A stretch of 64,000 bases of DNA from Candidatus Adlerbacteria bacterium (GTDB lineage: Bacteria; Patescibacteriota; Minisyncoccia; Phycocordibacterales; SBAW01): contig JAQBRA010000002.1 of NCBI GenBank assembly GCA_028286685.1, positions 1,073 to 65,072 on the forward strand, read 5' to 3'. The notes beneath the pieces are model-generated. The model had not been told where the DNA came from, did not search any database, and worked only from the letters and a program-made list of their open reading frames with translations. The translations under genes were made by a program, and so were the position numbers. The stretch's first letter is position 1. Each line of letters starts with the position of its first letter. Positions 32,552 through 60,512 of the stretch are shown here, in pieces.

Positions 32552-33322
32552 TTACAAACGCTCTATAGTGGTCGCCCAGATAACGCCGTCTATGTCGTAG
32601 GGAGTGTTTGCCTCGGCCGGATGCAGCGGGCCCTCAACCTTGACCTTGGCGCCGGTTGGGAAATCGACCGGCGATGCGGACATAAGCGAGGTGTTTATGG
32701 CGTAGTGGCCGTCGCTCTGGTCTATTGCGATGCCGAAGGCGCATTCCATAGTATGTGGGCCGTCACCCTTGTGCGGCAGGCACTCCCAGACGCCCGTAAC
32801 GCTTACCCGCTCAGGCGGTGGCTCTGTGGCGCCCTTTTGCCAGCTGGAGATAAGCCATTGCTCCGCCCGTTTTTCGAGCGCAATAGTTACCGGATACGTG
32901 GCGGCATAGCCTTCTGGATCATCATTCGTTACCTCAACTACCGTGCCCTGCGCGGTCGCGGTCGCATCCTTGTAGCTAACCTCGGCAATCTCGACGCGGT
33001 CGGGCCACGGACTCGAGGTTTGGCGGCCAGGGGCGCTCTTAGGGTCAGCCTGCCATGCCGCAAAAAGTTCCGGGGTTATATAGAGGCCGTACTGCGCGCC
33101 CACTTGCGCCGCAGCATCCGGAGCCAGGAGCGAGACATTCTTCATGTTCGAGCCCAGGCCCTCGATAGCGGCCCGAATAGCTGAGTCCTCGGTATTGGAG
33201 ACCGAACCCTGATCCGGAGCCTTCTGCCCGCCGAACAGCACCAGCATCAGCGCGACCCCAAGTGCCACCGCCGCCCCTATCCCCATGATTGCCTCTTTTT
33301 TCATAAACACATTGTAACGCAT
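32552..33322 (-). CDS. hypothetical N-terminally anchored or secreted protein
   Basis: TM or signal helix GIGAAVALGVALMLVLF. The start may be the internal Met MKKEAIM. Confidence 0.35.
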   Translation of the reverse strand: MRYNVFMKKEAIMGIGAAVALGVALMLVLFGGQKAPDQGSVSNTEDSAIRAAIEGLGSNMKNVSLLAPDAAAQVGAQYGLYITPELFAAWQADPKSAPGRQTSSPWPDRVEIAEVSYKDATATAQGTVVEVTNDDPEGYAATYPVTIALEKRAEQWLISSWQKGATEPPPERVSVTGVWECLPHKGDGPHTMECAFGIAIDQSDGHYAINTSLMSASPVDFPTGAKVKVEGPLHPAEANTPYDIDGVIWATTIERL

Positions 33323-33524: not shown

Positions 33525-35423
33525 TTACGGCAACGACTGGCGGCCCTGTGTGGCCCCTACGACGGGTATCCCCTTCTGTTTTATATAATTGACTATGCTC
33601 TGGAACATGCTGGGCGTTACGGAGTAGAGACTGTTGTTAGTGTCAATATCGTGGAACGCGAGTATGAGCCACGTACGCGTCTGCGCCGCAGTATCGACCC
33701 ACTGCTTGACCTGGTCGAGCGTCACGGTATTACGCAGCTCCTGGTACTCGAGCTGGTACGGGTCGGAGTTGGTGGACACGTAGCCGCTTATGGTCGCGGC
33801 CGCACTGGTAAAGCCTGCGTCTCGCACGACCTGGAGCGTCGTCGCGTCGTACTCGCCGTACGGGTACGCGAACGAAAGCACCGACCCCACGCTCCACCCC
33901 AAAAGATCCTGCCGCGACCCGGCTATCTCGTCCTGCTCCTGCTGGGGTGTGAGCGCGGTCAAGTGCGCATGCGTGCGGGTGTGCGCGCCTATCTCGTGCC
34001 CGCGAGCCGCCAGGTCCTGCACTTGCGCCTTGGACACAAAGCCCGGAAAGCCATTGTCGGCCGTCTCGCGCGAGATAATATAGAACATCCCCTTGAATCC
34101 GGCCGTATCGAGCATGGGCGCGGCCGCGGAGTACTGGCTGCTTAAGCCGTCATCGAAGCGGAAGGTCACCGCCCCGGTCAAGAATATGCCGCTCGAGGCC
34201 GAAGAGGCGGTTATGGCTACGTTGTCGAGCGATAGCGTACCGTTGCCTTTGATAAGGTGGAAGACTCTCGTCTTGGCCGCAGCAGATGGCACCGAAAGAG
34301 CGGCCGTGGCAGTAGTCCACGACGAGGCGGCAGGCAAGGTCTTGAGGTCCGCGTAGAAAAAGCTGCCGTCGGCGCGCTGGAATTCTGCGGTCAAGATTGT
34401 CGGCACGTTCGCCATATAGCTGTCCGAGTAGGTATACGCGCCCGGTGAGAGCGCCACCTGCTCGTGCACCCACTTGGCGTCGCCGCTTGCGTAGCCCGAC
34501 ATAGCTATCTGCGCGCCATTGCCGCTCTGTCCCGAGACGGGATATGTAAACACGCGCGTATTGCTGCCATAGCCGCCGCGGGCCCAACGCGCTGGGAGCC
34601 CCCCGGAGCCCGCGGTCTCGAAGTCGCCGTTTAGCACCGAGTTCTGGGCGGACGGAGGCGGCGGGGACGGCGGCATGACCTCGCGCAGGACGTAGTCGTC
34701 GGTATCGAGCGTGCCGTTGCTTTTAATAAGATGGAAGATCGTCGCTGACACCGTGCCCGCGGGCGCCGCAAATTGCACCGTGATGTTCGTGTATGCGGCG
34801 CTCGCGGGCAAGGTGGCAACGTCCTTATAAACGAACGTGCCGCCCGAGAGCGCAAAGCGGATAGTGACTATGCTTGCGGCCGTGCTTTTGTAGGTGTCCG
34901 AAAATTCGTAGGTCTTGCCGCCTGTTACGGGCATGTCGTCCGGGTACCACTTGGCGTCGCCGCTTGCGTAATTGGATAGTGCGACCTCAACGCCACTGCC
35001 ACTTTTGCCCGGCACGGGGTACGTAAGCGCTCGCGTGCTGCTGCCGTAGCCGCCCTTGTGCCAGCTGGCTGGCAGGCCGGGCTGACCGGCAGTCTCAAGC
35101 CCGGGATTAGGCACCAGATTGGGGCCAAAGCTGGAAGCTGCCGGAGCGAGCGCGGCGGGAGCCGCCGCGGGCGCTGTCTTGTTGCCGCTCGGCAGCGTAG
35201 GACTCGGTATAGGCGCCTTTCTGTCTATGTTGGGCTCTTGCGCGGTTTCGCGGTGCGGTATGAGTATGGGCCCGGCGCGCTGCAGGTTAGGGTCCGCGGC
35301 GCTTTCTTGGTTTGGGACCGGAGCGCCGAAGGAGACCCCGAGCGGCGCCACCAGCGCCACCATGACAATAAGCGTCGCTATTTTCTTTCGCCCGCGCCAC
35401 CAATTGTTTACATTGTCTTTCAT
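33525..35423 (-). CDS. secreted polysaccharide deacetylase (CE4/NodB domain) with two N-terminal tandem carbohydrate-binding-like repeats
   Basis: The C-terminal NodB block TFRFDDGLSSQ...HTRTHAHL is present. Two repeats of about 130 aa (LPASWHKGGYGSSTRALTYPV... and LPARWARGGYGSNTRVFTYPV...) occupy the N-terminal half. Confidence 0.65.
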   Translation of the reverse strand: MKDNVNNWWRGRKKIATLIVMVALVAPLGVSFGAPVPNQESAADPNLQRAGPILIPHRETAQEPNIDRKAPIPSPTLPSGNKTAPAAAPAALAPAASSFGPNLVPNPGLETAGQPGLPASWHKGGYGSSTRALTYPVPGKSGSGVEVALSNYASGDAKWYPDDMPVTGGKTYEFSDTYKSTAASIVTIRFALSGGTFVYKDVATLPASAAYTNITVQFAAPAGTVSATIFHLIKSNGTLDTDDYVLREVMPPSPPPPSAQNSVLNGDFETAGSGGLPARWARGGYGSNTRVFTYPVSGQSGNGAQIAMSGYASGDAKWVHEQVALSPGAYTYSDSYMANVPTILTAEFQRADGSFFYADLKTLPAASSWTTATAALSVPSAAAKTRVFHLIKGNGTLSLDNVAITASSASSGIFLTGAVTFRFDDGLSSQYSAAAPMLDTAGFKGMFYIISRETADNGFPGFVSKAQVQDLAARGHEIGAHTRTHAHLTALTPQQEQDEIAGSRQDLLGWSVGSVLSFAYPYGEYDATTLQVVRDAGFTSAAATISGYVSTNSDPYQLEYQELRNTVTLDQVKQWVDTAAQTRTWLILAFHDIDTNNSLYSVTPSMFQSIVNYIKQKGIPVVGATQGRQSLP

Positions 35424-35677
35424 ACCTACATATCGTCTTTAACATACGGACGCGATTTCGCGTAAGTGTAGTGCGTATGCCGTGATAGGACTGTGAACAA
35501 AGGCTATGGACAAAGCACGCATGCCGTAGCACAGCGCAATAATCTGAAGATGAAATATGGCGCAACCGTGCGATATACGATTCTTCATTAAGTTTCATCG
35601 TCCTTTCACTATTGACCATATTCACCGAGTCTTAAAGAATATGCAGGTGCGAAGCTTACCCGTTATGAATTCCAAGA

Positions 35678-37438
35678 TTGCAACCCATGCGTATTACAAA
35701 AGCCGCGCTCGTCGCGACTCTATCCCTCAGTGTGCTACTGCCGACGTTCGCGTCGGCGCAGACAGCTTCGGTCTATTACCCGTTCAACAGTGCGGGCACG
35801 CTCTATCAAGCGAGCTCTGCCGAAAAAAGCCCCAGTTCCTACTTCTGGCTTAAAAGCGGCGCCAAACTCGTCATCAAAGATGGTGTGGGCAACACGATAC
35901 AAGGCGCCCTTCCCGCCGACGATCCGTGGAGAAAGACCTATGCATCGACCCTCGCCACGGCCTCCGACAATGGCGCGCACCCGCAGAACACCTTCCTCCT
36001 GCTAACCCGGGCCGCATACAAGAACACCTCCGCACAGATATATGTGCGCCGTACGGCCGACAACCTTACAAACCCGGCCAATCGACAGCCCTACAACGGC
36101 GAGTCGATCCTCGCGCGGTACCAGAGTGACGGAACCTTCTACTATGCCGGCATCCGAGCCGATGGCACGGTCGTCATCAAAAAGAAATTGAACGGCGCAT
36201 ACCAAACGCTCTCGCAGAAGAAGGTGCTCTCTGGCACGTATAACGCAAGTTCAAATCCTAACCTCATCCCTAAAAACACCTGGATAGGACTTAAGCTCAC
36301 GATTGAAGACACCAGCGCAGGCCCGCAACTTACCCTCTTTACCGATGTGAGTAAGACCGGCGCGTGGAGCAAGGCGCTCAGCGTTATCGACGACAAGGCG
36401 AAATTCGGCAGCCCTATCACGGGCGCGGGTGTCGTCGGCATCCAAACCGATTACGCGGACGCGCAGTTCGACGACTTCCTCTTCTCGGAGATAGCGGCAA
36501 CATCGACCCCAGCCCCGACGCCAGCACCCACACCTACCCCTACTCCCACCCCCACTCCGACCCCGACGCCAGCACCCACACCTACGCCGACGCCTACCCC
36601 CGCACAGGGATATGACGCTACCGTGCTCGGCGGCAAGCCAGTCATGTACCTTGCAATGAACTCGTTCAGCACGGGCAAAGAGTCGGACCTAAGCGGCCAT
36701 AACAACGCCGGCGCCTACAAAGGCGGCACGCCCACGACGGCCGCGCTCCCTAACGGGGAGACGGCAGCCAACTTCAACGGCTCGAGCCAGTACCTGACCG
36801 TGCCGTCGAACGCCTCGCTCTCGATCCCGACTACCGGCAAATTGACGTGGGAGGCGTGGATCCGGCCCGATACGTTCCAGTTTTCCAACGCCAGCAGCGA
36901 TGGCTATGTCGACTGGATGGGCAAATGCGCAAACTACTCGCCGACGTGCGAGTGGGAGGCGCGCATCTACGGCGCATCGACCGCACAAGGCCGCCCCAAC
37001 CGACTCTCAGCCTACGCGTTCAACCCATCGGCCGGTCTCGGGAGCGCGGCCGACTGGCAGCCGCAGGCGGGCCTCCTGCAGGCGGGCAAGTGGCTCCACG
37101 TGGTCGCAGAATACGACCTATCGACGACGCCATCTGGGTGCTCCTCCGCTTACCCCGGATCGATCAACATCTGGGTCAACGGCATCAAGCAGAACTTCGC
37201 CGCACATGCACCGACCGGATGCATGAGCCAGTACAAAATATCCCCCAAAGCCGGCAGTTCGCCGCTTACTATCGGGACGATGGCGCTCGACACCTGGTTT
37301 AAGGGTGCGGTCGGCAAGGTCGCCGTGTACAACCGACTGCTGACGCAGACTGAAATCAATGCGCACTTCACTGCAATGACAGGCGCCAATCCTTCCGGCT
37401 CGTGCGCATCCACCTGTACCGCCGCGCTCGTGCAGTAA
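35678..37438 (+). CDS. secreted two-domain protein: an unassigned N-terminal domain, a Pro-Thr linker, and a C-terminal LamG/concanavalin-like domain
   Basis: Signal peptide, then a domain paralogous to the 41769..42605 protein (shared HPQN.F.L.TR and YYAG.R.DG..VIKKK.NGAY.TL). A (TP)n linker follows, then a C-terminal domain with a LamG_3-like pattern. Confidence 0.55.
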   Translation: MQPMRITKAALVATLSLSVLLPTFASAQTASVYYPFNSAGTLYQASSAEKSPSSYFWLKSGAKLVIKDGVGNTIQGALPADDPWRKTYASTLATASDNGAHPQNTFLLLTRAAYKNTSAQIYVRRTADNLTNPANRQPYNGESILARYQSDGTFYYAGIRADGTVVIKKKLNGAYQTLSQKKVLSGTYNASSNPNLIPKNTWIGLKLTIEDTSAGPQLTLFTDVSKTGAWSKALSVIDDKAKFGSPITGAGVVGIQTDYADAQFDDFLFSEIAATSTPAPTPAPTPTPTPTPTPTPTPAPTPTPTPTPAQGYDATVLGGKPVMYLAMNSFSTGKESDLSGHNNAGAYKGGTPTTAALPNGETAANFNGSSQYLTVPSNASLSIPTTGKLTWEAWIRPDTFQFSNASSDGYVDWMGKCANYSPTCEWEARIYGASTAQGRPNRLSAYAFNPSAGLGSAADWQPQAGLLQAGKWLHVVAEYDLSTTPSGCSSAYPGSINIWVNGIKQNFAAHAPTGCMSQYKISPKAGSSPLTIGTMALDTWFKGAVGKVAVYNRLLTQTEINAHFTAMTGANPSGSCASTCTAALVQ

Positions 37439-37537
37439 GGTTACCGACCTAAAAATCGACTCATCCCCCGTTCAGCGCAGTGCAACAGGCCATGGTTCAC
37501 TATCAGTTCAGCGTACTACGGTACAGTACGCCGTGAT

Positions 37538-38923
37538 ATGGAAGCTCAATCTGCGACAGAGAGAATAGCGGGAAAGGACGACAAGAAAGGACCGAAATCC
37601 CGCATCGACAAGCCGCGGAACGGGCAGGAAGATGAGCACCCACCCCCTCGCCTACTGAACGTAGCAGTGGTCGGCGTCGGCTATGTCGGCCTACCGCTCG
37701 CGCTCCTGGCCCGCGCAAAGGGCTACCGGGTGCGGGGCATCGACATCGACGAGCGCAAGCGCGCAGCTGTGCGTGACGCAGCCGTGGCCGACCTGGACGC
37801 CTCCTTTACGGAGGCGTTGCGCGTGCAGCCCTTAGAGGTCTCAGGCCATTTCGGCCCGGTGCGCAGCGCGAACATTGTCATCGTATGCGTGCCGACCCCG
37901 GTCGACGACGAGCATAACCCGGACCTCTCCTTGATCGAGGGAGCTGCACGCCGCGTCGGGCGCAACCTGCACCAAGGCGCACTCGTCATACTGGAGTCGA
38001 CCGTGCATCCCGGCACCTGCGACGAGATCTTTATCCCCATTTTAGAGAAAGCGTCGGGCCTGCGCGCCGGAAAGGATTTCGGCGTAGCCCATTGCCCGGA
38101 ACGCATCAACCCGGGAGACAAGGTTTGGACGATAGAACGCATCCCCCGCGTCGTGGGCGCCACGACCGAAAAGGCGCTTAGCTTGGCGGCCAGCTTCTAC
38201 CGCTCGATACTCAGCGCGTCGGTCCATGAGATGGAGAGCATTAAAGAGGCCGAGGCGGTCAAGGTGGTTGAGAATTCCTTTAGGGACATTAACATTGCCT
38301 TCGTCAACGAGCTCGCGATGTCCTTCAGCAAGCTTGGCATCGACGTCAGCCACGTGCTGAGCGGCGCCGCGACGAAGCCTTTCGGCTTCCTGCTCCATCA
38401 GCCGGGGTGCGGTGTTGGAGGGCATTGCATACCGGTCGACCCGTACTACCTTATACGGTACGCCAAGCGCAACGGATTTTCGCACCGCTTCCTGTCGCTC
38501 GCACGCACGATAAACGAAGGCATGCCCGCATATACAGTCTCGCTCGTCGAGACAGGCCTGCACTCGCTCGGACGCACGTTGAGCAACTCGAGCGTGGCGC
38601 TCTTGGGCCTCTCTTATAAAGCCAACGTAAGCGACCTGCGCGAGAGCCCGTCGTTCGAGATTAAGGAACTGCTTGAGAGTAAGGGGGCACGGGTGCGCAC
38701 CTTCGACGAGCATGCGCCCGACCGATCGACGACGCACTCGCTCGCCGAGGCGCTCGACGGGGCCGATGCCGCAATAGTCGCGACCGCCCATGCGGAGTTC
38801 GCTGGACTGCCCCCCTCGGTGTTCGCCTCGCGCGGCGTGCGCGTGGTGGTCGACGGACGCAACTGCCTCCAAAAGGAGCAGTACCTGCGGGCGGGCATCC
38901 TTTACCGCGGCATAGGCCGCTAA
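37538..38923 (+). CDS. nucleotide-sugar dehydrogenase (UDP-glucose/GDP-mannose dehydrogenase family)
   Basis: Rossmann motif VAVVGVGYVGLPLA. The catalytic Cys region GGHCIPVDP is present. 461 aa. Confidence 0.8.
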   Translation: MEAQSATERIAGKDDKKGPKSRIDKPRNGQEDEHPPPRLLNVAVVGVGYVGLPLALLARAKGYRVRGIDIDERKRAAVRDAAVADLDASFTEALRVQPLEVSGHFGPVRSANIVIVCVPTPVDDEHNPDLSLIEGAARRVGRNLHQGALVILESTVHPGTCDEIFIPILEKASGLRAGKDFGVAHCPERINPGDKVWTIERIPRVVGATTEKALSLAASFYRSILSASVHEMESIKEAEAVKVVENSFRDINIAFVNELAMSFSKLGIDVSHVLSGAATKPFGFLLHQPGCGVGGHCIPVDPYYLIRYAKRNGFSHRFLSLARTINEGMPAYTVSLVETGLHSLGRTLSNSSVALLGLSYKANVSDLRESPSFEIKELLESKGARVRTFDEHAPDRSTTHSLAEALDGADAAIVATAHAEFAGLPPSVFASRGVRVVVDGRNCLQKEQYLRAGILYRGIGR

Positions 38924-38927
38924 GGCA

Positions 38928-40211
38928 ATGGAACCACTACCCACGCAGCGACGGCTCGCATTCCTGCAGGACGCAGGGCCCCTGTTTATGTTCTTCCTCG
39001 TGGTTTACTTCATCATCATTCTGAAGACCGCGACTGTCTCCTCCATCGTCGACCACTGGTTCTTTGGCTTATACAGTCTGCTCATCACGACCTACATCCT
39101 CTCACGCTTCCTGCTGTCGCATTTCCATGTAGTGCCCCGCGCGGACCCCGCCTACCGCCCGACCGTCACTTTCGTGGTGCCGGCCAAGAACGAGGAGGAC
39201 AACATACGCGAGACTATGCGCAAGTTCAGCGAGGTCGACTACCCGCCCGAACTTATCGAGGTGATAGCTATCAACGACGGCTCCACCGACCGGACGCTTG
39301 AGGAGATGCGCGCAGCTGCGCTTGAGATACGTGCGCGCATCGCGCGCGTCGAGGTTATCCACTGGGGCCACAATCGCGGCAAGCGCCACGGCATGGCGGA
39401 AGGAGTACAGCGCGCGCGGCACGAAATCATCATCTTCATCGACTCCGACAGCTTCATCGAGCCCGACTGCGTCACCCACCTGGTAAAGTACTTCGCCGAC
39501 CCGGCAGTCGGCGCGGTCTCGGGGCATACCGACGTCCACAACGACCAGGCAAACTTCCTCACCCGCATGCAGGCCATACGCTACTACCTGGCGTTCCGAG
39601 TCTACAAGGCGGCGGAGTCGGTATTCGGCGCGGTAACCTGCTGCCCAGGCTGCTGCAGTGCATACAAGCGCGCCTACCTTATACCCATACTCGACGAGTG
39701 GCTTACCCAGCGCTTTTTGGGCGGCCAGTGCACCTTTGGCGACGACCGCTCGCTCACCAACTTTATCCTGCGGAAATTCGAGGCGGTCTATGCGCCCGAG
39801 GCGCGAGCGCGCACCGTCGTGCCCGAGAAGTTCGCCACGTACGTGCGCCAGCAACAGCGCTGGAAAAAGTCGTGGATACGCGAGACTTTTATCGCATGCG
39901 GATTTATGTGGCGCAAGCATCCGCTCGCGGCGATATCCTTCTATACGTACGTTTTTTTGGCGTTCGCCTCTCCTATCGTGTTTGCCCGCGCGATGATCTG
40001 GCATCCGCTTACGACCGCAAGCGTGCCGCTTGTGTACCTCGCGGGACTCTTCCTCATGCTCATGCTGCACGGGCTCTACTACCGCCTGTACATGGGCCCG
40101 CGAGCGTGGCTCACGGGGATAATGAGCTTTTGGTTTAATTCCGTGGTGCTTATGTGGCAGCTCCCTTGGGCACTCATCACGCTCAAGGACTCCCGCTGGG
40201 GCACCCGTTAA
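38928..40211 (+). CDS. processive family-2 glycosyltransferase of the HasA/NodC/chitin-synthase type (hyaluronan-synthase-like)
   Basis: Blocks GKRHGMAEG, DSDSFIEPD, LTRMQAIRY, CPGCCSAYKR, GDDRSLTNF, QQQRWKKSWIRE and SRWGTR align with the HasA/NodC signature motifs. The protein has multiple TM helices. Confidence 0.75.
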   Translation: MEPLPTQRRLAFLQDAGPLFMFFLVVYFIIILKTATVSSIVDHWFFGLYSLLITTYILSRFLLSHFHVVPRADPAYRPTVTFVVPAKNEEDNIRETMRKFSEVDYPPELIEVIAINDGSTDRTLEEMRAAALEIRARIARVEVIHWGHNRGKRHGMAEGVQRARHEIIIFIDSDSFIEPDCVTHLVKYFADPAVGAVSGHTDVHNDQANFLTRMQAIRYYLAFRVYKAAESVFGAVTCCPGCCSAYKRAYLIPILDEWLTQRFLGGQCTFGDDRSLTNFILRKFEAVYAPEARARTVVPEKFATYVRQQQRWKKSWIRETFIACGFMWRKHPLAAISFYTYVFLAFASPIVFARAMIWHPLTTASVPLVYLAGLFLMLMLHGLYYRLYMGPRAWLTGIMSFWFNSVVLMWQLPWALITLKDSRWGTR

Positions 40212-40216
40212 CTCCC

Positions 40217-41767
40217 ATGAGATTCGCACGATTTTCACTGCAAAGGCTCGGCCCGATAGTTTTTGCGGGAGTACTGCTCATGGTCGCGACTGTCTCGACG
40301 TTCACCTGGAAGAGCGCCCACTACGGGCAGACGCCGTTCTTCAACTGGCTGGTCCTCATGGTCGAAGAACGCACGGTAGCGGCGGCGTTCAATGGGTGGC
40401 ACTCCCTCGGCGATCTGTCAGCGCTCCTGGCGCCAAAAAAGACACAGGCGCAGCTCGCGAGAGCTGTCCCCGTGCTGGCCTATCACCGCCTGACGCTCAC
40501 CGAGGAGGCCGGCCAGCTTCCGGTGGCGCGCTTCATGGACCAGATGGAGACGCTGCACCGCGCCGGCTGGCACACCGCCACACTCGAGGAGTACCGGCAG
40601 TTCGTGCAGGGCACGCGCACGCTCCCCGAGCGCACCTTTCTCCTGACGTTCGACGACGGGGCGCAGCAGAGCTACTACCCCGTCGACCCCATACTCAAGA
40701 CGCTCGGTTACAGCGCGGTACAGTACGTCATCGTATCCGCCAGCGAAACGCCCAAAAGCATCTACTACCTATCGCCCGAGCAGATAAGCGCCATGCTCTC
40801 AACCGGGCGCTGGGAGATAGGCTCGCACTCCTTTGACGCACACCACACCTACCCCACCGACCCCGCAGGCGGGACCGGCATCTTTTATACCGACAAACTC
40901 TGGATGCCCACGCAAGGGCGCCTGGAGACCGACGCGGAGTTCCTCGCGCGCGTGCACGACGATCTCTTGCGCGCGCGCCAGGCGCTCGAAGCGCGCTACG
41001 GCGTAACAGTCGACACGTTTGCCGTCCCCTTTGGCGGAGAGACCGGACACCGCGCGGCGGACAACTACGCCGGTGGCAGCGATATAACGCTCGCGGAAGC
41101 GCGCAGGCTCTACGACTTCGTGTGGCTGCAGACCGACCGGCGCGACTTTACCTTCAATTACCCCAGCTACCCCTCTATACTCGGCAGGCGCATACACGTC
41201 GACTACGACTGGGAAGGCGAGACGCTCAAGACATTTATGGAGGGTGGAGTCCCCAAGGCGCTGCCATATAGGGATAACTTTGCCGTCGACAGCGGCTGGC
41301 GGCACTCCTGGGGCAGCGTCCAGCCCATCGGGTCGCTCGAGCTCGGTGCGGGCCCGCAGGATACCAGCGCGGGGAGCGTGCTGGACGGGAGTCTCTTGTG
41401 GAGCGCGTACCAAGCGGAGGCGACGGTCAATTGGGAACACGGGTACGCGGTGATCATGGGCGCGGTGCGCGACGCCCACACATACCGGTCGTGCTCGTTC
41501 TCTCCCGGCGAGGTCGAAATACACGACACCAGCGGCACCAGCATCATCCCGCTTGCCAAGCGCGCGGAGTCTGAGATCCAATACGGACAGGGGGTCAAGC
41601 TGGGTATCCGCGTGGAAGATGCCGCTATCTCCTGCTTGTACAACGGCCATGTCCTGCTCTCCGCGCCGACTGGCCGCAACGAGGGCGGCGTCGGCATACA
41701 GACTTGGGCGCCTGAACCAGGCACGGCGAGCCTCCTGGTGACCAATTTTCTCGCAGACCCGCTGTAA
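40217..41767 (+). CDS. membrane-anchored polysaccharide deacetylase (CE4/NodB domain) with a C-terminal beta-rich domain
   Basis: NodB blocks FLLTFDDGAQQSY, RWEIGSHSFDAHH and FAVPFGGETGH. The start was set at MRFARFSL, which overlaps the GT2 stop. Confidence 0.7.
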   Translation: MRFARFSLQRLGPIVFAGVLLMVATVSTFTWKSAHYGQTPFFNWLVLMVEERTVAAAFNGWHSLGDLSALLAPKKTQAQLARAVPVLAYHRLTLTEEAGQLPVARFMDQMETLHRAGWHTATLEEYRQFVQGTRTLPERTFLLTFDDGAQQSYYPVDPILKTLGYSAVQYVIVSASETPKSIYYLSPEQISAMLSTGRWEIGSHSFDAHHTYPTDPAGGTGIFYTDKLWMPTQGRLETDAEFLARVHDDLLRARQALEARYGVTVDTFAVPFGGETGHRAADNYAGGSDITLAEARRLYDFVWLQTDRRDFTFNYPSYPSILGRRIHVDYDWEGETLKTFMEGGVPKALPYRDNFAVDSGWRHSWGSVQPIGSLELGAGPQDTSAGSVLDGSLLWSAYQAEATVNWEHGYAVIMGAVRDAHTYRSCSFSPGEVEIHDTSGTSIIPLAKRAESEIQYGQGVKLGIRVEDAAISCLYNGHVLLSAPTGRNEGGVGIQTWAPEPGTASLLVTNFLADPL

Positions 41768-41768
41768 C

Positions 41769-42605
41769 ATGCTTATGCAGTTCTATGGCGTACTATCGGC
41801 GATGATCCTTTTAGCCGCAGTGGCGCTCCTTTTTGGCGCGGATCGAGTCGGCACGCCCGTGGCTACGGTCGCCTCGCCGTATGTCTACTTGTTCGGAGGG
41901 AACGGCGCACTGGAAGAGGCCAGGAATACGTCCAGGACCGCGAGCCCCTACTGGTGGCTAAACTCCGGCGGCAGAATCGAGATTGCCGGCTCCCTGGGCA
42001 GCACGATGCAGGGCGACGCGCCGCAAGGTGACCGATGGCGCACGGCCTACGCCGCCTCCAACCCGACCGATACCGACCAGGGTCTCCATCCGCAGAACAT
42101 CTTCCGTCTCGTGACGCGCAGCCTGTGGGGAGACGCGAGCCAGGAGGTCGAGCTGCGCCTGGTTGCCGACCAGAAGAGCCAAAGCCCTAATCGCAACGCG
42201 TCGAACGGGCTCTTTCTTATGAGCCGGTACGTGGACGGCGATACGCTTTACTACGCGGGCCTGCGCGTCGACGGCATGGCCGTGATAAAGAAAAAATACA
42301 ACGGCGCGTATTATACGCTTGCCGAGGCGCCGGCCTTCCCCGGCGCCTACGACCGCGACAAAAACCCCAATCTCCTGCCGCACGGGGAATGGCTCTCGAT
42401 ACGGTCCGAGACCGCGCATACTGACGGCGGCATCGCCATACGCCTATACCTGAAGCGGGAGTCGGACACCAATTGGCTGAAGCTCCTCGAGGCGATTGAC
42501 CGCGGCCAGAGCGGGACGCCCGCCATCAGGGGCCGCGGGCGCGGCGGCATCCGCACCGACTTTATGGACGTGCAGTTCCGCTCGTACCGGATGGAAAATT
42601 TGTGA
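41769..42605 (+). CDS. secreted protein paralogous to the N-terminal domain of the 35678..37438 protein
   Basis: YWWLNSGGRIEI...HPQNIFRLVTRS...YYAGLRVDGMAVIKKKYNGAYYTL parallels the upstream paralog. Confidence 0.5.
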   Translation: MLMQFYGVLSAMILLAAVALLFGADRVGTPVATVASPYVYLFGGNGALEEARNTSRTASPYWWLNSGGRIEIAGSLGSTMQGDAPQGDRWRTAYAASNPTDTDQGLHPQNIFRLVTRSLWGDASQEVELRLVADQKSQSPNRNASNGLFLMSRYVDGDTLYYAGLRVDGMAVIKKKYNGAYYTLAEAPAFPGAYDRDKNPNLLPHGEWLSIRSETAHTDGGIAIRLYLKRESDTNWLKLLEAIDRGQSGTPAIRGRGRGGIRTDFMDVQFRSYRMENL

Positions 42606-44971: not shown

Positions 44972-46180
44972 TTATAGGAACTCCTTAAGGAACGCGTGCA
45001 CAGAACCCGGAGGAGTCATGCCGGAGTATCGCTCATCACCAATAACGATGCGATTGGGCTTCTTGTAGTAACTCGATTGGAGGTTGAAGGTGTAAACACC
45101 TTCTTCATCCGTACGCTGCAACCGGTCTTCCGGACGCTTGAGGCTCGACCAGAGAAAGTCGAGCGATTCGCTCCCGAAAGACGGCTCCCTATTTTGTATA
45201 TAGGGCGCCACCCGCGAGCCAGTAGCCAGCAGGAAGGTCGTCTGAGCATCGCCGCCGCCCCATAATCCGGCCCGAAGGTCGGTAAGGGTATCTCCGGCAT
45301 AGAAGAGGCGCAGGTCTTTTGTCGGTCGGCCGGCTGCTTTCGCAGACTCCGAAAACAGCCGGTTGATCATCTTCTCCTTTCTTGCTCCCCAAGGAATGAG
45401 GTAGAGCGTGTATTTGCTGTTTTCAGGATTATTCCGGTCGGGCCTGCTTTCATCTACAAGCGCAATACGAAGGGCGACCGAATGCCCTTCGGACTTCTTA
45501 CGTTCAATAGCGGAAACGAGCGCATTCATCTGGGCCAATCCGCTACTTCCTTTGAAGTCGAGCTGGAATCTGTATTCCAGCGGAGCGACGTCAGTCAGGT
45601 CTTGCTCGTAGTTACTCCTATTTTCTAAGGGAGACATGTACTCTCCCGCTTCAGGAAAGGTGTCCGCCAAGAAAGCCAGCATCGACAGGCGCCACGGCTC
45701 AGGCTTCGATGCTCCTTTCTTGGCAGCGTCGTGCTTGAGCAGATCGAAGTAGTTATGATCAACCATGTACCCGTGCCCGTTACGCAGGCAGATGCCGCTC
45801 CCGAAGCCGGCGGAAACATCCCAATCGAGAGAGTGGTCAAAAAACGAAACCCCCTCGAGCGGAACAGGCACGCGCCTGCCCGTTACCTGCTCAACGCCCC
45901 ACTTGGGCTCAGGTTCGAGGAAGCCGAGTTTTTTCGACGCTTGATAGACCGAGCTCGACATAGTGAGCGCAGGCGTACGGGCCGTTACAGCACCCGCCAC
46001 CAACCCTCTGTCCAAAAGCAGCTGGCGAACAGCCGCTCTGTCATTCAACTCATTCGAAGACGGAATCTTATCTCCCGTTGTAAATGTCCCATCAAGGTCG
46101 GTAAGCACCATGATGCCGCTTTCTTTTAACTTGGGGATATAGGAAGCTTTCCCATAAGGATCCCCCACCACGTCCGTCAT
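44972..46180 (-). CDS. HAD-superfamily hydrolase-like protein
   Basis: HAD motif I MVLTDLDGTFT and motif IV-like YAGDTLTD. Confidence 0.45.
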   Translation of the reverse strand: MTDVVGDPYGKASYIPKLKESGIMVLTDLDGTFTTGDKIPSSNELNDRAAVRQLLLDRGLVAGAVTARTPALTMSSSVYQASKKLGFLEPEPKWGVEQVTGRRVPVPLEGVSFFDHSLDWDVSAGFGSGICLRNGHGYMVDHNYFDLLKHDAAKKGASKPEPWRLSMLAFLADTFPEAGEYMSPLENRSNYEQDLTDVAPLEYRFQLDFKGSSGLAQMNALVSAIERKKSEGHSVALRIALVDESRPDRNNPENSKYTLYLIPWGARKEKMINRLFSESAKAAGRPTKDLRLFYAGDTLTDLRAGLWGGGDAQTTFLLATGSRVAPYIQNREPSFGSESLDFLWSSLKRPEDRLQRTDEEGVYTFNLQSSYYKKPNRIVIGDERYSGMTPPGSVHAFLKEFL

Positions 46181-51357: not shown

Positions 51358-52245
51358 CTACTTGTCCTTAAAAAAATCCTCGAGCCCCAGCTGCGTCGCC
51401 TCGGCCATGGCATTGAGTGTGCTCTCGCGCAGGAGCGGGTCTTGGATGCGGCGCTCGTATATGTAGGAATATTCCACCAACACACTTGCGGCCTCCAGCG
51501 TATTGTATGCGCCTATGGCGATAAGCTCTTGGTCTTCCACCAGACCCGCGCTTTCGCCCGGCAAGGTGCTCGGGTAGGTTACATCCATAAGGCGGTCCCG
51601 CAGGGCCTCTCCGACCGCCCAGGAGCCCCGCGCGTTGCCAAACTGATTCTCGGGCGTGTAGATAGTAAAGCCGGTGTACGGAGCCGGGTAGTTAAGATCG
51701 TAGCGCGCCGTATCGTTGAAATGCACATGCAAGACGAGATCGAACTCCTCGTCATTGGACCACTTATTGATGCCGTAGAGCCTGAGCGCCGCTTCGCTGG
51801 CGGCGGTCCCATGCGGCACGCCGCTCGCAGATTCAAGATTCCCCGACTCCAAATGACGCTCCATGCGGTCCTTGTAGCGCGCGATGAAATCCTCGGTCTG
51901 CTCCCGTCGATCGGTAAAATATTCAAGGAGGTCGGGGTCGTACCCCTCTTCGGTACGCGCCATGCGCACCTCCAAGTTCTTATTATCCCCCAAGAGGTCC
52001 TTAATTTTTTCTGCAAGTTCAAGATTTAGGTCAGCCTCGCGCAGGCCGGCAAAGGAGGTGCCACTAAACTGATCGTCATGCCCGGCAACAATGAGCACCT
52101 TAAAATCGCCCTTGCCCTTCTGTGCATCCTTATATGCCTTATGGAGGATTGCCGGCGTCGAAGTGTCCTTGTAGGCGGCGGCAAAGGCCTGGCCTGCAGG
52201 CAAAATAAGCAGGGCCGCGGCGACCAACACTAACAAGCGCTTCAT
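51358..52245 (-). CDS. N-acetylmuramoyl-L-alanine amidase (Amidase_3 family), secreted
   Basis: Signal peptide, then VLIVAGHDDQFSG... and the Amidase_3 His/Glu pattern. Confidence 0.65.
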   Translation of the reverse strand: MKRLLVLVAAALLILPAGQAFAAAYKDTSTPAILHKAYKDAQKGKGDFKVLIVAGHDDQFSGTSFAGLREADLNLELAEKIKDLLGDNKNLEVRMARTEEGYDPDLLEYFTDRREQTEDFIARYKDRMERHLESGNLESASGVPHGTAASEAALRLYGINKWSNDEEFDLVLHVHFNDTARYDLNYPAPYTGFTIYTPENQFGNARGSWAVGEALRDRLMDVTYPSTLPGESAGLVEDQELIAIGAYNTLEAASVLVEYSYIYERRIQDPLLRESTLNAMAEATQLGLEDFFKDK

Positions 52246-56424: not shown

Positions 56425-58095
56425 CTAGCTCGATACATCAGTCGGCTCCAAAATAACCTTAGGCGGCATAAAGCGGTTTTTAAGCGCCAGGTACGTCTCC
56501 GCAATCTCCTTGTTTTTAAGCAGGTAAAGTACCACGGCCGTCACCATAAGCCCCACTGCGCCGCCCACAAAGCCTTGGGTCAAAATGCCGGCAGTAGTAT
56601 TTATATCGACCAAGAGGCCCATGACGGTAAGCGCGACATAAGCCGCGCCGCCGCCCACTATCGAGGCGCCCAGGCTTTCAAACGAGAGCCTCCATAGCGG
56701 CCCCAGGGTCAGCTTGAAGTCGCGGCGCAAGTGCCAGAAGCCGGCCGCAAACCCCGCCAAAGAGCCCAGGGTCATCGCTAGCGCAAGCATGAGGACCGTC
56801 GTGCCCGTGAGGTCGGAAACGCGCAGCATGGCCTCGAGCATGTCGCGCCAGAGGTAATTGCCGTGGAACACCGCAATGAATAGCAGCGCCGAGAGCACCG
56901 AGACGCACACAGTCGTTAATCCGAAATAAAAAGGCTTGGACGTATTGCCTGCCGCATAATACGCGCGGGCAATGAGCATCGATACCGACTGCGCGAGCAG
57001 GGACACGACAAACAGCGCCAGCGCAGCGGCGGTGAGCTTGGTCGCCCCCCAATCGAACGCGCCGGAGCCGAGTATTGCGCGCACCAGCTGCGCGCGCAAA
57101 ACGATTATGAGCACCGTTGCAGGTATGGTCCAGAAGAATATGTGGCGCAGCGCCACCTCAACGTGCCGCGCAAATTCCGAGAGTTCCCCGCCCGCATGGA
57201 GCTTGGAGAGCGTCGGGAATGCCGCGACCGAGTACGACACGCCGATAATAGTCAGCGGCACGGCCTGCAGGTTCCAGCCGAACATGAATACTGCAATGGA
57301 GCCCGGCGCCATAAACGACGCCAGCGCAGTGAGGATGATGAGCGATATCTGCCCGGCGCCCAAGGAAAGCGTGCGCGGCACCGAGAGGCTCAGCACTTTC
57401 CACAGCTCGCGGCGCGACTCGCGCCACGGCATGTGCGTCTGCGGGCGCTCGACCGCAAAGAACGGGAGCTGGACGAGCATATGGAGCGCCGCGCCTATAA
57501 CCACGCCCCACGCGAGGCCCGCAAGCCCCATGCGCGGATACAAAAATACGATACCCGATATGATGCCTAGGTTATATAAAAGCGGCGATATGGAATAGAG
57601 GAAGAACCGGTGCCGCATCTGGGTCAAGTTAGCGAGGATGTTTGAGGCGCCCAAGAATATCGGCTGCAGGAGCAGTATGCGCGCGAGCAGTACCAAGTCG
57701 GGATTTGCAATGCCCGGTGCGATAAGCTGCAGGAGCCAGGGCGCGAGCATGAACACTACCAGCGATATGGCTCCCATTGCCGCAAAGAAAAATAAGAGCA
57801 TCTGCCGCAGGAAGGAAATCATGTGCCCCTCGTCGGTCTCGGCAAGCCTCGAGAGCACCGGCAAGAGCGCATACAGCGACAGGAGCGAAGCGACGGTAGC
57901 AAACAGCAAGTCCGGAATGCGGAATGCCGCATAGTACACGTCGAGTGTATGCGACGCGCCGAACTCCGCCGCCAAGAGCCGGTCGCGCACCAAGGCCAGA
58001 AGCTGGCTGCCCAAGGCAAAAGCCGCCAGCAAGTAGGCGGCCTGATGCATCCCGCGGACCTCGCGCCCTATGACGCTTAAAAAAGCTCGTACCAC
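56425..58095 (-). CDS. murJ: lipid II flippase MurJ (MviN family)
   Basis: About 14 TM helices. The N-terminus LLALVRDRLLAAEFGASHTLDVYYAAFRIPDLLF is MurJ-like. Confidence 0.8.
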   Translation of the reverse strand: MVRAFLSVIGREVRGMHQAAYLLAAFALGSQLLALVRDRLLAAEFGASHTLDVYYAAFRIPDLLFATVASLLSLYALLPVLSRLAETDEGHMISFLRQMLLFFFAAMGAISLVVFMLAPWLLQLIAPGIANPDLVLLARILLLQPIFLGASNILANLTQMRHRFFLYSISPLLYNLGIISGIVFLYPRMGLAGLAWGVVIGAALHMLVQLPFFAVERPQTHMPWRESRRELWKVLSLSVPRTLSLGAGQISLIILTALASFMAPGSIAVFMFGWNLQAVPLTIIGVSYSVAAFPTLSKLHAGGELSEFARHVEVALRHIFFWTIPATVLIIVLRAQLVRAILGSGAFDWGATKLTAAALALFVVSLLAQSVSMLIARAYYAAGNTSKPFYFGLTTVCVSVLSALLFIAVFHGNYLWRDMLEAMLRVSDLTGTTVLMLALAMTLGSLAGFAAGFWHLRRDFKLTLGPLWRLSFESLGASIVGGGAAYVALTVMGLLVDINTTAGILTQGFVGGAVGLMVTAVVLYLLKNKEIAETYLALKNRFMPPKVILEPTDVSS

Positions 58096-58181
58096 TCCCC
58101 CATTTTACCTTGGAATATAAGGAAAAGACACAAAACCGCCGCCCGTGATGGGCGGCGGTTTTAGTTAGAGCAAGGTCGCGC

Positions 58182-60512
58182 TTATTCCTGCACCGGAGCG
58201 GTGGTGGATTGGGTCGGGGTGGTCGTCGCTCCCTCGAGCGCCGGCTTGCCCGCCTGCATGTTGCTTATGACCAGCTTGATTTCCTGATTGTCCGGATTGG
58301 TGCGAACCAAGTCCTGGAACAACTGCAGCGCTTCTACCTGGCGGCTCTGCGTGTAGTAGCTGAGACCCAGGAAGTACTTGGCGTTCGCATAATCGGCCTG
58401 GATCTTGAGCGCCTGCTCAAGCGGCGCGATAGCCTCCTTCGGGGCTCCGCCTGCGTAGTACAGCAAGCCGAGCTGGAACCACAGGGGCGCTACGCCCGGC
58501 GCCGACTGCACCGCAGCCTGTGCGGCCTGGACCGCCGAGTTAAGGTCGTTGTTGGCGACATTGAGCTGTACCAGGAACAGGATCGCGTCAGTGTAGTTGG
58601 GCTTCTGGGTCAGCGAAGCGCGCAGGTACTCGATAGTGCCCGCCTGATCGCCGTTCATAGCCGAGAGGCGCGACAGCGCGAGCGTAATGGTCGGATTCTG
58701 CGGATTGCGGCTCAGTGCGGCCAGATACGTAGAGCTTGCCTGGGCATACGCGCCCTCTACCTTAAGCGAGGAGAGCAGGTCGTATACGCGCGCCATGGAG
58801 AGGAGCGGCCGGTAATCATCCGGATTTGCGGCGATGGCTTTCTGGCCGGCAGCAATAGTCGACTGCAGAGCGGCGGCAAACTGGGTCTGCAGGTCCGCAG
58901 CAGGAGTGTTTGTATTCTGCGCGAGGCCTGCCAATTTGGTGCCGCCTGCATCTACCTGGAGGCGCAAGGCGTCGCCGATAGACTCAATGCCCTCGGCTTT
59001 GACTGCCAGTGCGAGCGCCTCGTCTGCATTGCCGTTTGCCAAGGCAACGCTTGCCTTGCCGACATACACCTCGGCCAAAGCGCGCTGCGAAGTCTTAGCG
59101 GATGCCACGAGCGCAGCGATAATGATGAGCATGCCGAGCGCCAGCGCGTAGAGCTGCACGGGGCGGCTCGGAGCCTCTTCCGTAACTGCAGGACGCCCCT
59201 GGCGCCACAAGAAGCCGAAGGATGCTCCGGCCAAAGTAAGAGCCAAGAGGATAAGGTTTTGGCTCGGGACATAGAAGATCATGGATGCCAAAAGCAGGAA
59301 GCTGCCTGCGGCGAGCGCCATGGCAAGGCCCTTGTCCTCGCGGTTGAGCACCGATACGCGCCAAGCGCGTGCCAAAGCGGCAAGCACCAGGAGGAACGGC
59401 AGTATCCAAGCCAAGACGCCGAGCACGCCTACGGTGCCGAGCGCAGTCGTGAGCGTCGAGAAGCCGACGTTAAAGTCGAGATTCCAGAACGCGGACTGGT
59501 TAACCTCAGCCGGCTTGTGGGCCAGCCACAACTCGCCAAAGGTGTTAGGGCCCGTGCCGGTAAGTGTGCGACCAAACGAGCCGTCGCGGCCTGCCGAGAG
59601 TACGGCCTGAGTAGACTGGTAGGAAGGGCGGACCTCCAAGGAAGATACGGGGAAGATCGACGTGAGGCCGGTATTGAACAGCGGGCCCCAGAAGATGAAG
59701 GCGATCGAAACCATGGCGGAGCCGATGGCGATCCACGGCATGCGGCCCATAAGGCCGCGGGGCACATGCTGGACTTCGCCCTCCTCGCCGCGATGCGAGA
59801 TAAACGAGTAGAGACCGACGCACAGCGAGGCGACCAGGACCAAGGCCCATGCCAAGCTAAAGTTGACGAACGCCAAGAGGAGTACTAGCGCGACGCCCAA
59901 TACCATAGAGCCGATGCGCATCAGGTTGGACGAGCGGCGCAGCTCTATTTGTACGAGAACAAAGAGGAACGCGAGCGAAGCCAAGAGGCCAAGATCGTTC
60001 CACTTGCCCACGAGGTTGACCGAGCGGTCGGCAAACGTCTGGAACGGTATGACCGAGGTGCCAAAGAGTATGGCGATGAACTGGAATACGACTGCGGCGA
60101 CCAGCGCCCACAGGACCGTCGTGTAGAGCAGGCGTGCGGTGCGCTGAGTGCGGAAGAGCGCCGACGAGAAGACGAAGGCGAGCGCGGCGAGCGTCGTAAA
60201 GAGGACTGTGTCCCACTCTACGCTAAAGCCGCTCCATGAAACGGTGGAGTCGAGCGATAGGAAGGCCGATAATGTATAAGCGGCCGGCAGCAAGAACACG
60301 GCGAGCGTCGCCCAAGCCCCATGCGAACGGACGAACTCGCGCATGCCGCCCCCGGCGACAAACAGCACCGCCGCTCCAAGAAGGAGTGCGGCAAACACGG
60401 CTACCTTTGCTAATTGAAACGGGAACCACGCGGTCGGGATGACCAGCACCAAGGCAAGAACGATACCTGCCAGGTACAGGCCCCGAGACCACGCCTGTAG
60501 TCTTGAGTACAT
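58182..60512 (-). CDS. O-antigen-ligase-like (Wzy_C) polytopic membrane protein with C-terminal TPR repeats
   Basis: A 12-TM N-terminal half with a Wzy_C-like loop. The C-terminal third has TPR-like helical repeats (AYAQASSTYLAALSRNPQN... and similar). Confidence 0.5.
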   Translation of the reverse strand: MYSRLQAWSRGLYLAGIVLALVLVIPTAWFPFQLAKVAVFAALLLGAAVLFVAGGGMREFVRSHGAWATLAVFLLPAAYTLSAFLSLDSTVSWSGFSVEWDTVLFTTLAALAFVFSSALFRTQRTARLLYTTVLWALVAAVVFQFIAILFGTSVIPFQTFADRSVNLVGKWNDLGLLASLAFLFVLVQIELRRSSNLMRIGSMVLGVALVLLLAFVNFSLAWALVLVASLCVGLYSFISHRGEEGEVQHVPRGLMGRMPWIAIGSAMVSIAFIFWGPLFNTGLTSIFPVSSLEVRPSYQSTQAVLSAGRDGSFGRTLTGTGPNTFGELWLAHKPAEVNQSAFWNLDFNVGFSTLTTALGTVGVLGVLAWILPFLLVLAALARAWRVSVLNREDKGLAMALAAGSFLLLASMIFYVPSQNLILLALTLAGASFGFLWRQGRPAVTEEAPSRPVQLYALALGMLIIIAALVASAKTSQRALAEVYVGKASVALANGNADEALALAVKAEGIESIGDALRLQVDAGGTKLAGLAQNTNTPAADLQTQFAAALQSTIAAGQKAIAANPDDYRPLLSMARVYDLLSSLKVEGAYAQASSTYLAALSRNPQNPTITLALSRLSAMNGDQAGTIEYLRASLTQKPNYTDAILFLVQLNVANNDLNSAVQAAQAAVQSAPGVAPLWFQLGLLYYAGGAPKEAIAPLEQALKIQADYANAKYFLGLSYYTQSRQVEALQLFQDLVRTNPDNQEIKLVISNMQAGKPALEGATTTPTQSTTAPVQE

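Follow-up and report, generated by a model that had tools for sequence, protein, structure and literature searches.

The subject of this work is a glycan locus in a 64-kb stretch of DNA from a Candidatus Adlerbacteria bacterium (contig JAQBRA010000002.1), hereafter the window, whose numbering gives the coordinates of its genes. Six of these, lettered A to F, span positions 33525–42605. We propose that C, D, E and F form a synthase-dependent operon for a surface polysaccharide, conserved in Patescibacteria, with A and B as accessory genes, and we put the probability of this general model at about 0.7. The polymer is probably based on N-acetylglucosamine (GlcNAc), chitin-like, partly deacetylated and possibly acidic; ordinary hyaluronan it very probably is not. 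A sequence-only reading of the same DNA had proposed a glycan locus making a hyaluronan-like or chitosan-like product. All six open reading frames (ORFs) are present where it had placed them, while the hyaluronan side of the proposal fares badly, as we shall see.

C, D, E and F follow one another closely in the window: with the ATG at 40217 as the start of E, the gaps between them are 4, 5 and 1 nt. To see this order in relatives we examined 80 loci drawn from a genome collection at species level, and four others. Among the 73 with room for it, a gene of the carbohydrate esterase family CE4, the family of E, lies directly downstream of the GT2 glycosyltransferase gene, the counterpart of D, in 72; because of this the gene arrangement is far beyond chance. 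A membrane GT2 with co-encoded extracytoplasmic modifiers, the mark by which we recognise a synthase-dependent system, is what the D–E pair offers. Of 53 Patescibacteria-type loci, 48 have F, and in 41 a nucleotide-sugar dehydrogenase gene, the counterpart of C, stands directly upstream of GT2. Three divergent dehydrogenase orthologues (54–56% identity), picked regardless of context, are all clustered with a processive GT2 and a CE4 gene: one lies directly upstream of GT2, two are separated from it by a single gene, and in one of the loci (L093) the GT2 is of another type. The core dehydrogenase–GT2–CE4–F is thus conserved. Two genes of the locus as first claimed are peripheral, A and B being only sporadic neighbours of this core. 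The 119 closest database homologues of D are 63–93% identical to it, and those named by source come from Kaiserbacteria, Paceibacterota or Parcubacteria, all Patescibacteria; the number of database matches to D at E ≤ 1e-10 is about 3,900. Seen against these identities, the earlier idea that the locus is a surface determinant of the organism can be kept, as a likely important one.

D (38928–40211, forward strand, 427 residues) is a membrane-embedded processive GT2 synthase, matched in Pfam by GT2 and Chitin_synth_2. The motifs claimed for it at first sight are all there: we find NRGKRHGM (149–156), DSDS (172–175), GDDR (271–274), QQQRW (308–312) and SRWGTR, its last six residues. An AlphaFold model with a mean predicted local distance difference test score (pLDDT) of 81.5 shows a GT-A domain surrounded by membrane helices, two of them N-terminal and three C-terminal. 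With this model Foldseek returns as best matches two hyaluronan synthases (HAS), XlHAS1 from Xenopus and CvHAS from a Chlorella virus (E 8e-22 to 4e-18, template-modelling score 0.75–0.77), then, more weakly, BcsA (2e-13) and chitin synthases (about 5e-11, with Chs1 at 5e-11). The sequence search of PDB gives CvHAS 111 bits, Xenopus HAS 106, cellulose synthase 38 and the chitin synthase Chs1 26. The nearest solved folds are hyaluronan synthases, and the description of D as a processive GT2 of the HasA/NodC/chitin-synthase type stands. Both PgaC and cellulose synthase are distant from it.

Within the HAS/NodC superfamily D has its place, yet it falls inside neither HAS nor NodC. Its best curated full-length hidden Markov model (HMM) is that of NodC, TIGR04242, with 197 bits over residues 48–427, under the cutoff of 550; the PgaC model TIGR03937 gives 127 bits (cutoff 422) and CelA 31 bits (cutoff 699), and the protein stops at WGTR with no PilZ domain. 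The Pfam model Chitin_synth_2 passes its cutoff of 27 with 102 bits, but this domain also matches HAS and other GT2 enzymes, so that it is non-specific (PMC5122149). Identity in tblastn is 30–36% with NodC, 30% over the aligned length with Bacillus anthracis HasA and 26–27% with PgaC; in the catalytic core it is 31–39% with HAS sequences and 22% with PgaC. A neighbour-joining tree was built from 189 core columns with few characterised references. In this tree the family of D is a monophyletic group (100% bootstrap) to which CvHAS, XlHAS1, B. anthracis HasA and NodC do not belong. It gathers proteins from Patescibacteria, one from Paenibacillus, and others from metagenome-assembled genomes (MAGs) of Aminicenantes, Syntrophorhabdus and Kiritimatiellia. 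The grouping of this family with HAS to the exclusion of NodC has a bootstrap of 14% only, and the tree does not settle how the groups outside the family branch. The motifs lean to one side: the family has GDDRxLTN, QQxRW-KS-W-x-RE and WGTR, like HAS, where NodC has GEDRHLT, RWARSTYRD and WLSR. Chitin synthases carry GEDR. GDDR, for its part, is invariant in HAS (PMC11750622). Membership of D in HAS, NodC, chitin synthases (CHS), PgaC or BcsA was considered in turn, and in every case one or more of the defining tests (HMM cutoffs, core identity, motifs or tree) speak against it. JGI labels many orthologues of D 'hyaluronan synthase'. Judged from sequence comparisons, D resembles HAS but is best placed in a distinct family of the HAS/NodC/CHS superfamily.

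The constant partner of D is E. As an ORF it runs from 40154 to 41767 on the forward strand (537 residues), and the overlap of D and E described earlier is a probable artefact of taking the first in-frame GTG (40154): the ATG at 40217, 5 nt past the TAA of D, is the likely start and yields a typical signal-anchor N-terminus. E would be an N-terminally membrane-anchored CE4 de-N-acetylase of PgaB/BpsB type. Its CE4 domain scores 53 bits on PF01522, the PgaB model TIGR03938 gives 98.6 bits (cutoff 322 missed), and the PDB search returns BpsB (70 bits), then PgaB and IcaB. The NodB model, by contrast, reaches 23 bits and does so on A only: E is PgaB-type rather than NodB-type. Among the 23 aligned Patescibacteria-type homologues of E all keep TFDDG and H-x4-H, two histidines five residues apart, a spacing which we take to be that of His184/His189 in PgaB. 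Its C-terminal domain of about 230 residues has no consistent Pfam match in 27 homologues. E and A both possess a NodB-homology domain with the Asp-Asp and His-His motifs of CE4 enzymes and, with such deacetylases as constant partners of GT2, the suggestion of a de-N-acetylated GlcNAc-type polymer is a plausible one.

In some relatives this partner persists after its catalytic residues have gone. Three aligned homologues from Gram-negative phyla have LFEGxRK and SMG in place of the motifs, and that of Paenibacillus has SFEDG and no histidine; a separate canonical CE4 gene lies upstream in the Paenibacillus cluster. The copies that follow GT2 at L066 9225–11144, L067 9142–11079, L074 8168–10096 and L085 9279–11048 (numbering of each surveyed locus) have lost Asp-Asp and both metal-binding histidines. 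Because a CE4-like protein devoid of these residues is still the most constant partner of GT2, its retention suggests a second, non-catalytic role, which might be that of a scaffold or chain guide; in these relatives the protein looks like a pseudo-deacetylase.

C (37538–38923, forward strand, 461 residues) is an NAD-dependent nucleotide-sugar 6-dehydrogenase with all three UDPG_MGDP_dh domains of Pfam. It had been called Ugd-like, a label that must be given up. On the general nucleotide-sugar dehydrogenase model TIGR03026 it scores 389 bits (cutoff 190 passed). The models of N-acetylhexosamine (HexNAc) dehydrogenases give 295 bits for the archaeal UDP-N-acetylmannosamine (UDP-ManNAc) enzyme, 230 for TviB and 219 for WecC; C reaches no equivalog cutoff (592 for TviB, 459 for WecC). 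By comparison, three UDP-glucose dehydrogenase (UGDH) models give 190 (cutoff 670), 157 for TuaD (700) and 41 for Escherichia coli Ugd (757). In the PDB search 4r16 comes with 284 bits, Cap5O with 220 and UGDH with about 145. The catalytic cysteine motif of C is GVGGHCIPVDPYYL, and the form GGHCIPVDPYYL is of the HexNAc type, against GGSCFPKD in UGDHs. A neighbour-joining tree of dehydrogenases (400 columns, 200 bootstraps) joins the Patescibacteria clade to PGAP-named TviB and to the Paenibacillus enzyme with 100% bootstrap; WecC, Cap5O and 4r16 form a separate clade (98%), and the UGDHs are the outgroup (100%). A Ugd or HasB identity of C is ruled out by HMM scores, PDB scores and tree alike, and from sequence we assign the enzyme to the UDP-N-acetylhexosamine group (TviB/WbpO/WbpA/WecC/Cap5O).

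Which hexosamine it oxidises is a finer question. JGI names the orthologues of C 'UDP-N-acetyl-D-glucosamine dehydrogenase'. With E. coli WecB as tblastn query the window shows no 2-epimerase, and about 90 related loci yield a single one. Given this lack of a linked 2-epimerase, UDP-GlcNAc stands out as the likeliest substrate, and its conversion to UDP-N-acetylglucosaminuronic acid (UDP-GlcNAcA) is what we would favour, with moderate confidence.

F (41769–42605, forward strand, 278 residues) is anchored in the membrane by a helix at residues 2–23. None of 36 members of its family has a Pfam match, and no sequence or profile match was found in PDB. Its model (pLDDT 95.3) consists of the N-terminal membrane helix and a concanavalin A-like beta-sandwich, for which Foldseek finds CBM66 (E 2e-8), legume lectins and, among GH16/GH43-associated domains, the GH43 protein BlXynB and a 1,3-1,4-beta-glucanase (lichenase). 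Across the 36 sequences 44 residues are invariant, many of them charged, with many Arg, Lys, Asp and Tyr, a set that would suit an enzyme as well as a protein binding a charged polymer. F is the type of an undescribed and unannotated protein family. It has a paralogue on the other side of the biosynthetic genes, as had been noticed at the outset: residues 27–272 of B and 32–278 of F are 38% identical (E 3e-51).

Two sets of distant relatives help to place these genes. On a megaplasmid of Paenibacillus cellulositrophicus the order is CE4, dehydrogenase, GT2, CE4-like protein and a GH18 protein, the GT2 being 39% identical to D. The GH18 protein occupies the position of F and retains the D-x-E of its catalytic motif; this enzyme points to a beta-linked GlcNAc backbone. 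The dehydrogenase of this cluster is an unannotated ORF of 414 residues between CE4 and GT2 (L085 6034–7278; NZ_CP045296.1, 263338–264582), with 429 bits on the TviB model, and the PLSDB gene table does not list it. In the loci that we looked at from Gram-negative phyla, the order is GT2, CE4-like protein and a protein of 1,340–1,670 residues, the last being TPR-rich in the two tested by Pfam; one such locus has a GHL10 hydrolase nearby.

So far we have observed domain identities, fold, motifs, gene linkage and conservation; all that follows on substrates, linkage, chain length and biological role is inferred from them. C would oxidise a UDP-N-acetylhexosamine, in all likelihood UDP-GlcNAc, to the corresponding uronic acid in the cytoplasm. 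The window encodes MurJ and an amidase, which implies that the organism has a peptidoglycan pathway and hence a pool of UDP-GlcNAc. D, with the fold and motifs of a processive synthase, would polymerise UDP-GlcNAc and thread the chain through its own transmembrane channel, probably taking the product of C as a second donor. Such a synthase would dispense with a lipid carrier, an economy that would fit a reduced genome. Held by its single N-terminal helix on the outer face and endowed with the motifs of such enzymes, E would de-N-acetylate part of the emerging polymer in the manner of PgaB, BpsB and IcaB. F and the related domain of B may bind or trim the polymer, their slot being that of GH18 in the Paenibacillus relative, and A would add further deacetylation. 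The outcome would be a chitin- or chitosan-like chain, probably acidic and zwitterionic after deacetylation, serving as wall, capsule or adhesive material.

Whether a uronic acid enters the chain is the least secure part of this scheme, and we hold the incorporation of N-acetylhexosaminuronic acid to be a little short of an even bet. Its strongest form would make D a dual-specificity synthase alternating GlcNAc with the GlcNAcA made by C, an 'N-acetyl-hyaluronan' or acidic chitin, which E and A would render zwitterionic, as the main envelope or adhesion matrix of ultra-small bacteria of the Paceibacteria type; this we think rather unlikely. We know of no synthase-made polymer of alternating GlcNAc and GlcNAcA composition. 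In CvHAS the residues framing the carboxylate of UDP-glucuronic acid are K177, R341, the GDD at 300–302 and R348 (PMC12987647; PMC11750622). All their equivalents in D are conserved (K152, R311, G271–D273, R318); most of these residues are found in NodC as well.

Several points weigh against an acidic polymer made in the way proposed. The contacting Lys and Arg being shared with NodC, their conservation in sequence would permit a uronic acid donor and does not prove one. The universal partner of GT2 is CE4, not the dehydrogenase, which is not adjacent to GT2 in 12 of the 53 Patescibacteria loci and is absent from all 12 of the loci counted for other phyla. In the surveyed loci no position of the GT2 active site tracks the presence of the dehydrogenase, the differences following phylogeny. 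C itself appears about equidistant from the TviB type (250–270 bits in BLAST) and the 4r16/WecC type (260–280 bits for 4r16), so that scores do not fix GlcNAc against ManNAc. The substrates for which CE4 and GH18 enzymes are best known are neutral polymers of GlcNAc; neither the type of linkage nor the length of the chain can be read off a sequence; and no member of the family has been biochemically characterised.

These same facts invite a simpler product, a plain chitin- or chitosan-like homopolymer for which D would use only UDP-GlcNAc and which E and A would deacetylate, the dehydrogenase serving another glycan, a primer or a decoration and sharing the operon for convenience. The prevalence of CE4 over the dehydrogenase and the lack of any correlation between dehydrogenase and GT2 positions fit it well. 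So do NodC as best full-length model of D, the Chitin_synth_2 match, the GH18 gene of Paenibacillus and the nearness of E to deacetylases of poly-N-acetylglucosamine (PNAG), which act on a GlcNAc homopolymer. We nevertheless find it doubtful. The junction of C and D, 4 nt in the window, is matched by an adjacency kept in Patescibacteria and Paenibacillus, and divergent dehydrogenase orthologues also sit near GT2 and CE4; among the window ORFs scanned there is no other glycosyltransferase able to use the product of the dehydrogenase; and GDDR is of HAS type, against the GEDR of NodC. The sequence-only reading had named as its own undoing a UDP-ManNAc or UDP-GlcNAc dehydrogenase unrelated to the product of GT2: the enzyme is indeed of that class, but so tight and conserved a linkage with GT2 contradicts the second half of the phrase.

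It is very improbable that the locus makes short secreted chito-oligosaccharides, host signals like those of NodC, instead of a long structural polymer. Patescibacteria are often episymbionts that need to interact with a host, D has the size and topology of NodC and its best curated model, and its CE4 partners recall nodB–nodC. Against this, the NodC cutoff is far off (197 against 550 bits), D has GDDR, KSWxRE and WGTR where NodC has GEDR, RSTYRD and WLSR, E is PgaB-type, and no nodA-like acyltransferase is found at the locus. The relatives from Gram-negative phyla encode giant TPR proteins, and in polymer export such proteins are known partners, among them PgaA, BcsC and AlgK. Finally, true hyaluronan (alternating glucuronic acid, GlcA, and GlcNAc) or a GlcA polymer like that of type 3 pneumococci, made by a hasB–hasA style pair, would account for the order of dehydrogenase and HAS-like GT2, which resembles hasA/hasB and a plasmid pair of Lactococcus and Enterococcus, for the JGI label and for HAS as nearest solved fold, but the hasB–hasA analogy fails and GlcA-containing hyaluronan is most improbable because C is not Ugd- or HasB-like (scores low on UGDH and higher on HexNAc models, a 100% bootstrap split from UGDHs, the motif GGHCIPVDPYYL), while D stands outside the HAS sequences of the tree and neither a UGDH nor GalU is found among the window ORFs scanned. 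We thus return to a GlcNAc-based, partly deacetylated polymer, possibly acidic, as the reading that we prefer.

The accessory genes lie upstream of this core. A (33525–35423, reverse strand, 632 residues) encodes a CE4 deacetylase, secreted or anchored; like B, E and F, the protein has a hydrophobic N-terminal segment. Its HfsH-like CE4 domain is at the C-terminus (PF01522, 86 bits, residues 418–539), with the motifs RFDDG, HTRTH and AYPYG, and its best NCBIfam match is HfsH, 103 bits under a cutoff of 400. Two tandem N-terminal repeats of about 145 residues, 102–246 and 261–404, are 45.5% identical. A second CE4 gene upstream on the opposite strand, with tandem repeats, is thus as first described; 'carbohydrate-binding' is not borne out, the repeats matching no Pfam family and no PDB sequence, and so no known carbohydrate-binding module. 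B (35678–37438, forward strand, 586 residues) is secreted, with a signal peptide, the F-paralogous concanavalin-like domain at 27–272, a Pro-Thr linker and a Laminin_G_3 domain at 367–561 (47.6 bits). The linker, encoded at 36500–36620 and made of Pro-Thr and Pro-Ala (TPAPTPAPTPTPTPTPTPTPTPAPTPTPTPTPA), gives spurious matches to S-layer, internalin and TonB models. Between A and B, in the divergent intergenic region 35424–35677, a consensus scan shows one promoter-like site (35612–35640, forward strand), which carries no functional weight, the promoter and terminator scan of the locus being uninformative.

Other relatives show what may happen to the cassette. In L050 a 328-residue ORF upstream of GT2 (6886–7872) retains the central domain of the dehydrogenase and part of its N-terminal domain; this locus was scored as lacking the dehydrogenase, and the ORF is probably a decayed dehydrogenase gene. 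The Patescibacteria variant L093 (4449–12089) has the order CE4, dehydrogenase, epimerase/dehydratase of the short-chain dehydrogenase/reductase (SDR) family, a 571-residue GT2 that is weakly PgaC-like, and a 583-residue protein without assigned function. The polymer of this cluster may be built from a uronic acid that has been epimerised or altered in some other way; a TviC-like epimerase was sought in the SDR protein, where only a generic SDR match was found.

In about 25 Patescibacteria loci an OmpR-type response regulator (224 residues, 52–71% identity between loci), usually with a histidine kinase, is encoded within a few kb of the cassette; examples are L003 16114–17860, L006 4444–6214, L019 6068–7802, L020 6092–7832, L030 6960–7634 and L038 4448–5122, and there are others. 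A frequent order is response regulator, histidine kinase, dehydrogenase, GT2, CE4 and F, and where the dehydrogenase is missing the regulator is often directly beside GT2. As far as gene neighbourhood can tell, this suggests that polymer production would be under two-component control in many relatives. The 64-kb window has no homologue of this regulator.

A module of only two genes is found on the mobilizable Lactococcus plasmid pUCCL637C (L086 1105–3522): a Ugd-type dehydrogenase and a HAS-like GT2 with GDDR and WGTR, flanked by IS30 and IS6 transposases. A similar pair exists in Enterococcus faecium (H6). By its sequences the module looks like a mobile hasB/hasA- or cps3D/cps3S-like unit for a uronic acid polymer.

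Around the locus, whose boundaries are as claimed, the flanking genes scanned are housekeeping genes or genes without family match (TrxB-like, DAO, VOC, DHH, TsaD, a tRNA synthetase and four ORFs without Pfam match). The window further carries FtsA/FtsZ, GyrA and 11 scattered tRNA genes. C and F are each 100% identical to a protein from a Candidatus Adlerbacteria MAG. The gene of the lipid II flippase MurJ adjoins that of a 776-residue protein with a TPR-rich C-terminal part (56425–60512, reverse strand) and an Amidase_3 gene lies at 51358–52245; with MurJ it is evidence of peptidoglycan building, outside the glycan locus. An ORF of 391 residues (6805–7980, forward strand) overlaps a predicted tRNA-Leu on the same strand (7013–7098) and is probably spurious. 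ORFs without any Pfam match are found at 44972–46180 (reverse strand, 402 residues), 812–2242 (forward strand, 476 residues) and 32552–33322 (reverse strand, 256 residues).

Abundant, host-dependent and for the most part uncultured, Patescibacteria have a cell surface of which little is known. So conserved an operon for a polymer made without lipid carrier is a strong candidate for a core component of the envelope or of attachment. The GT2 family, seen as a sister lineage to HAS and NodC that goes with a different class of dehydrogenase, could widen the range of products of HAS-like enzymes and could offer a route to acidic or zwitterionic chitin-like materials. Full-text literature searches brought up no account of the operon, of F, or of any pairing between a HAS-like synthase and a dehydrogenase of HexNAc type; a 'hyaluronan synthase' annotation is mentioned in passing for MAGs of soil Parcubacteria (PMC6064768).

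Comparison with known systems shows both what is borrowed and what is not. With class I HAS and its UDP-glucose dehydrogenase (hasA/hasB of streptococci and B. anthracis, and the Chlorella virus and vertebrate enzymes) the locus shares a single membrane GT2 that would both polymerise and export. The likeness extends to GKR, DSD, GDDR, QQxRW-KS-x-RE and the C-terminal WGTR, to the best structural match and to a dehydrogenase gene beside the synthase. It stops at the separate clade of D (100% bootstrap) and the UDP-HexNAc type of the dehydrogenase, and has operons have no counterpart of the obligatory CE4 partner or of F. The PNAG systems (pgaABCD, icaADBC, bpsABCD) likewise join a GT2 synthase to an extracytoplasmic CE4 enzyme of PgaB/IcaB type acting on a secreted GlcNAc polymer, and the giant TPR protein of the relatives in Gram-negative phyla recalls PgaA. 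The present locus differs in having no small gene like PgaD or IcaD, in a synthase below the PgaC cutoff, in the presence of a dehydrogenase, and in that E has, instead of the C-terminal hydrolase domain of PgaB, another domain of about 230 residues. NodC–NodB and the eukaryotic chitin synthase/deacetylase pairs have in common with it the GT2 superfamily, deacetylation by CE4 and, in the Paenibacillus version, GH18; they are set apart by the unmet NodC cutoff, the motifs, a weaker fold match to chitin synthases, the absence of nodA and a CE4 enzyme of PgaB type.

As for the dehydrogenase, C belongs to the same group as TviB of the Vi antigen (TviB/TviC), WbpO, WbpA, WecC and Cap5O. In the pathways of these enzymes, however, it is GT4 or other transferases outside the synthases that take up the uronic acid, by ABC- or Wzy-dependent routes, and not a HAS-like synthase. 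Caulobacter HfsH is the best curated match for the CE4 domain of A, although the score is far under the cutoff and A carries two extra repeats of unassigned fold. Holdfast adhesion needs partial deacetylation of a GlcNAc-containing adhesin, and the holdfast is made by a Wzy-type pathway and not by a synthase; by analogy, deacetylation of this kind would be plausible for an episymbiont. Hyaluronan synthesis, PNAG and chitin synthesis with deacetylation are thus known already, and what this locus adds is a GT2 clade, another class of dehydrogenase and an undescribed accessory family.

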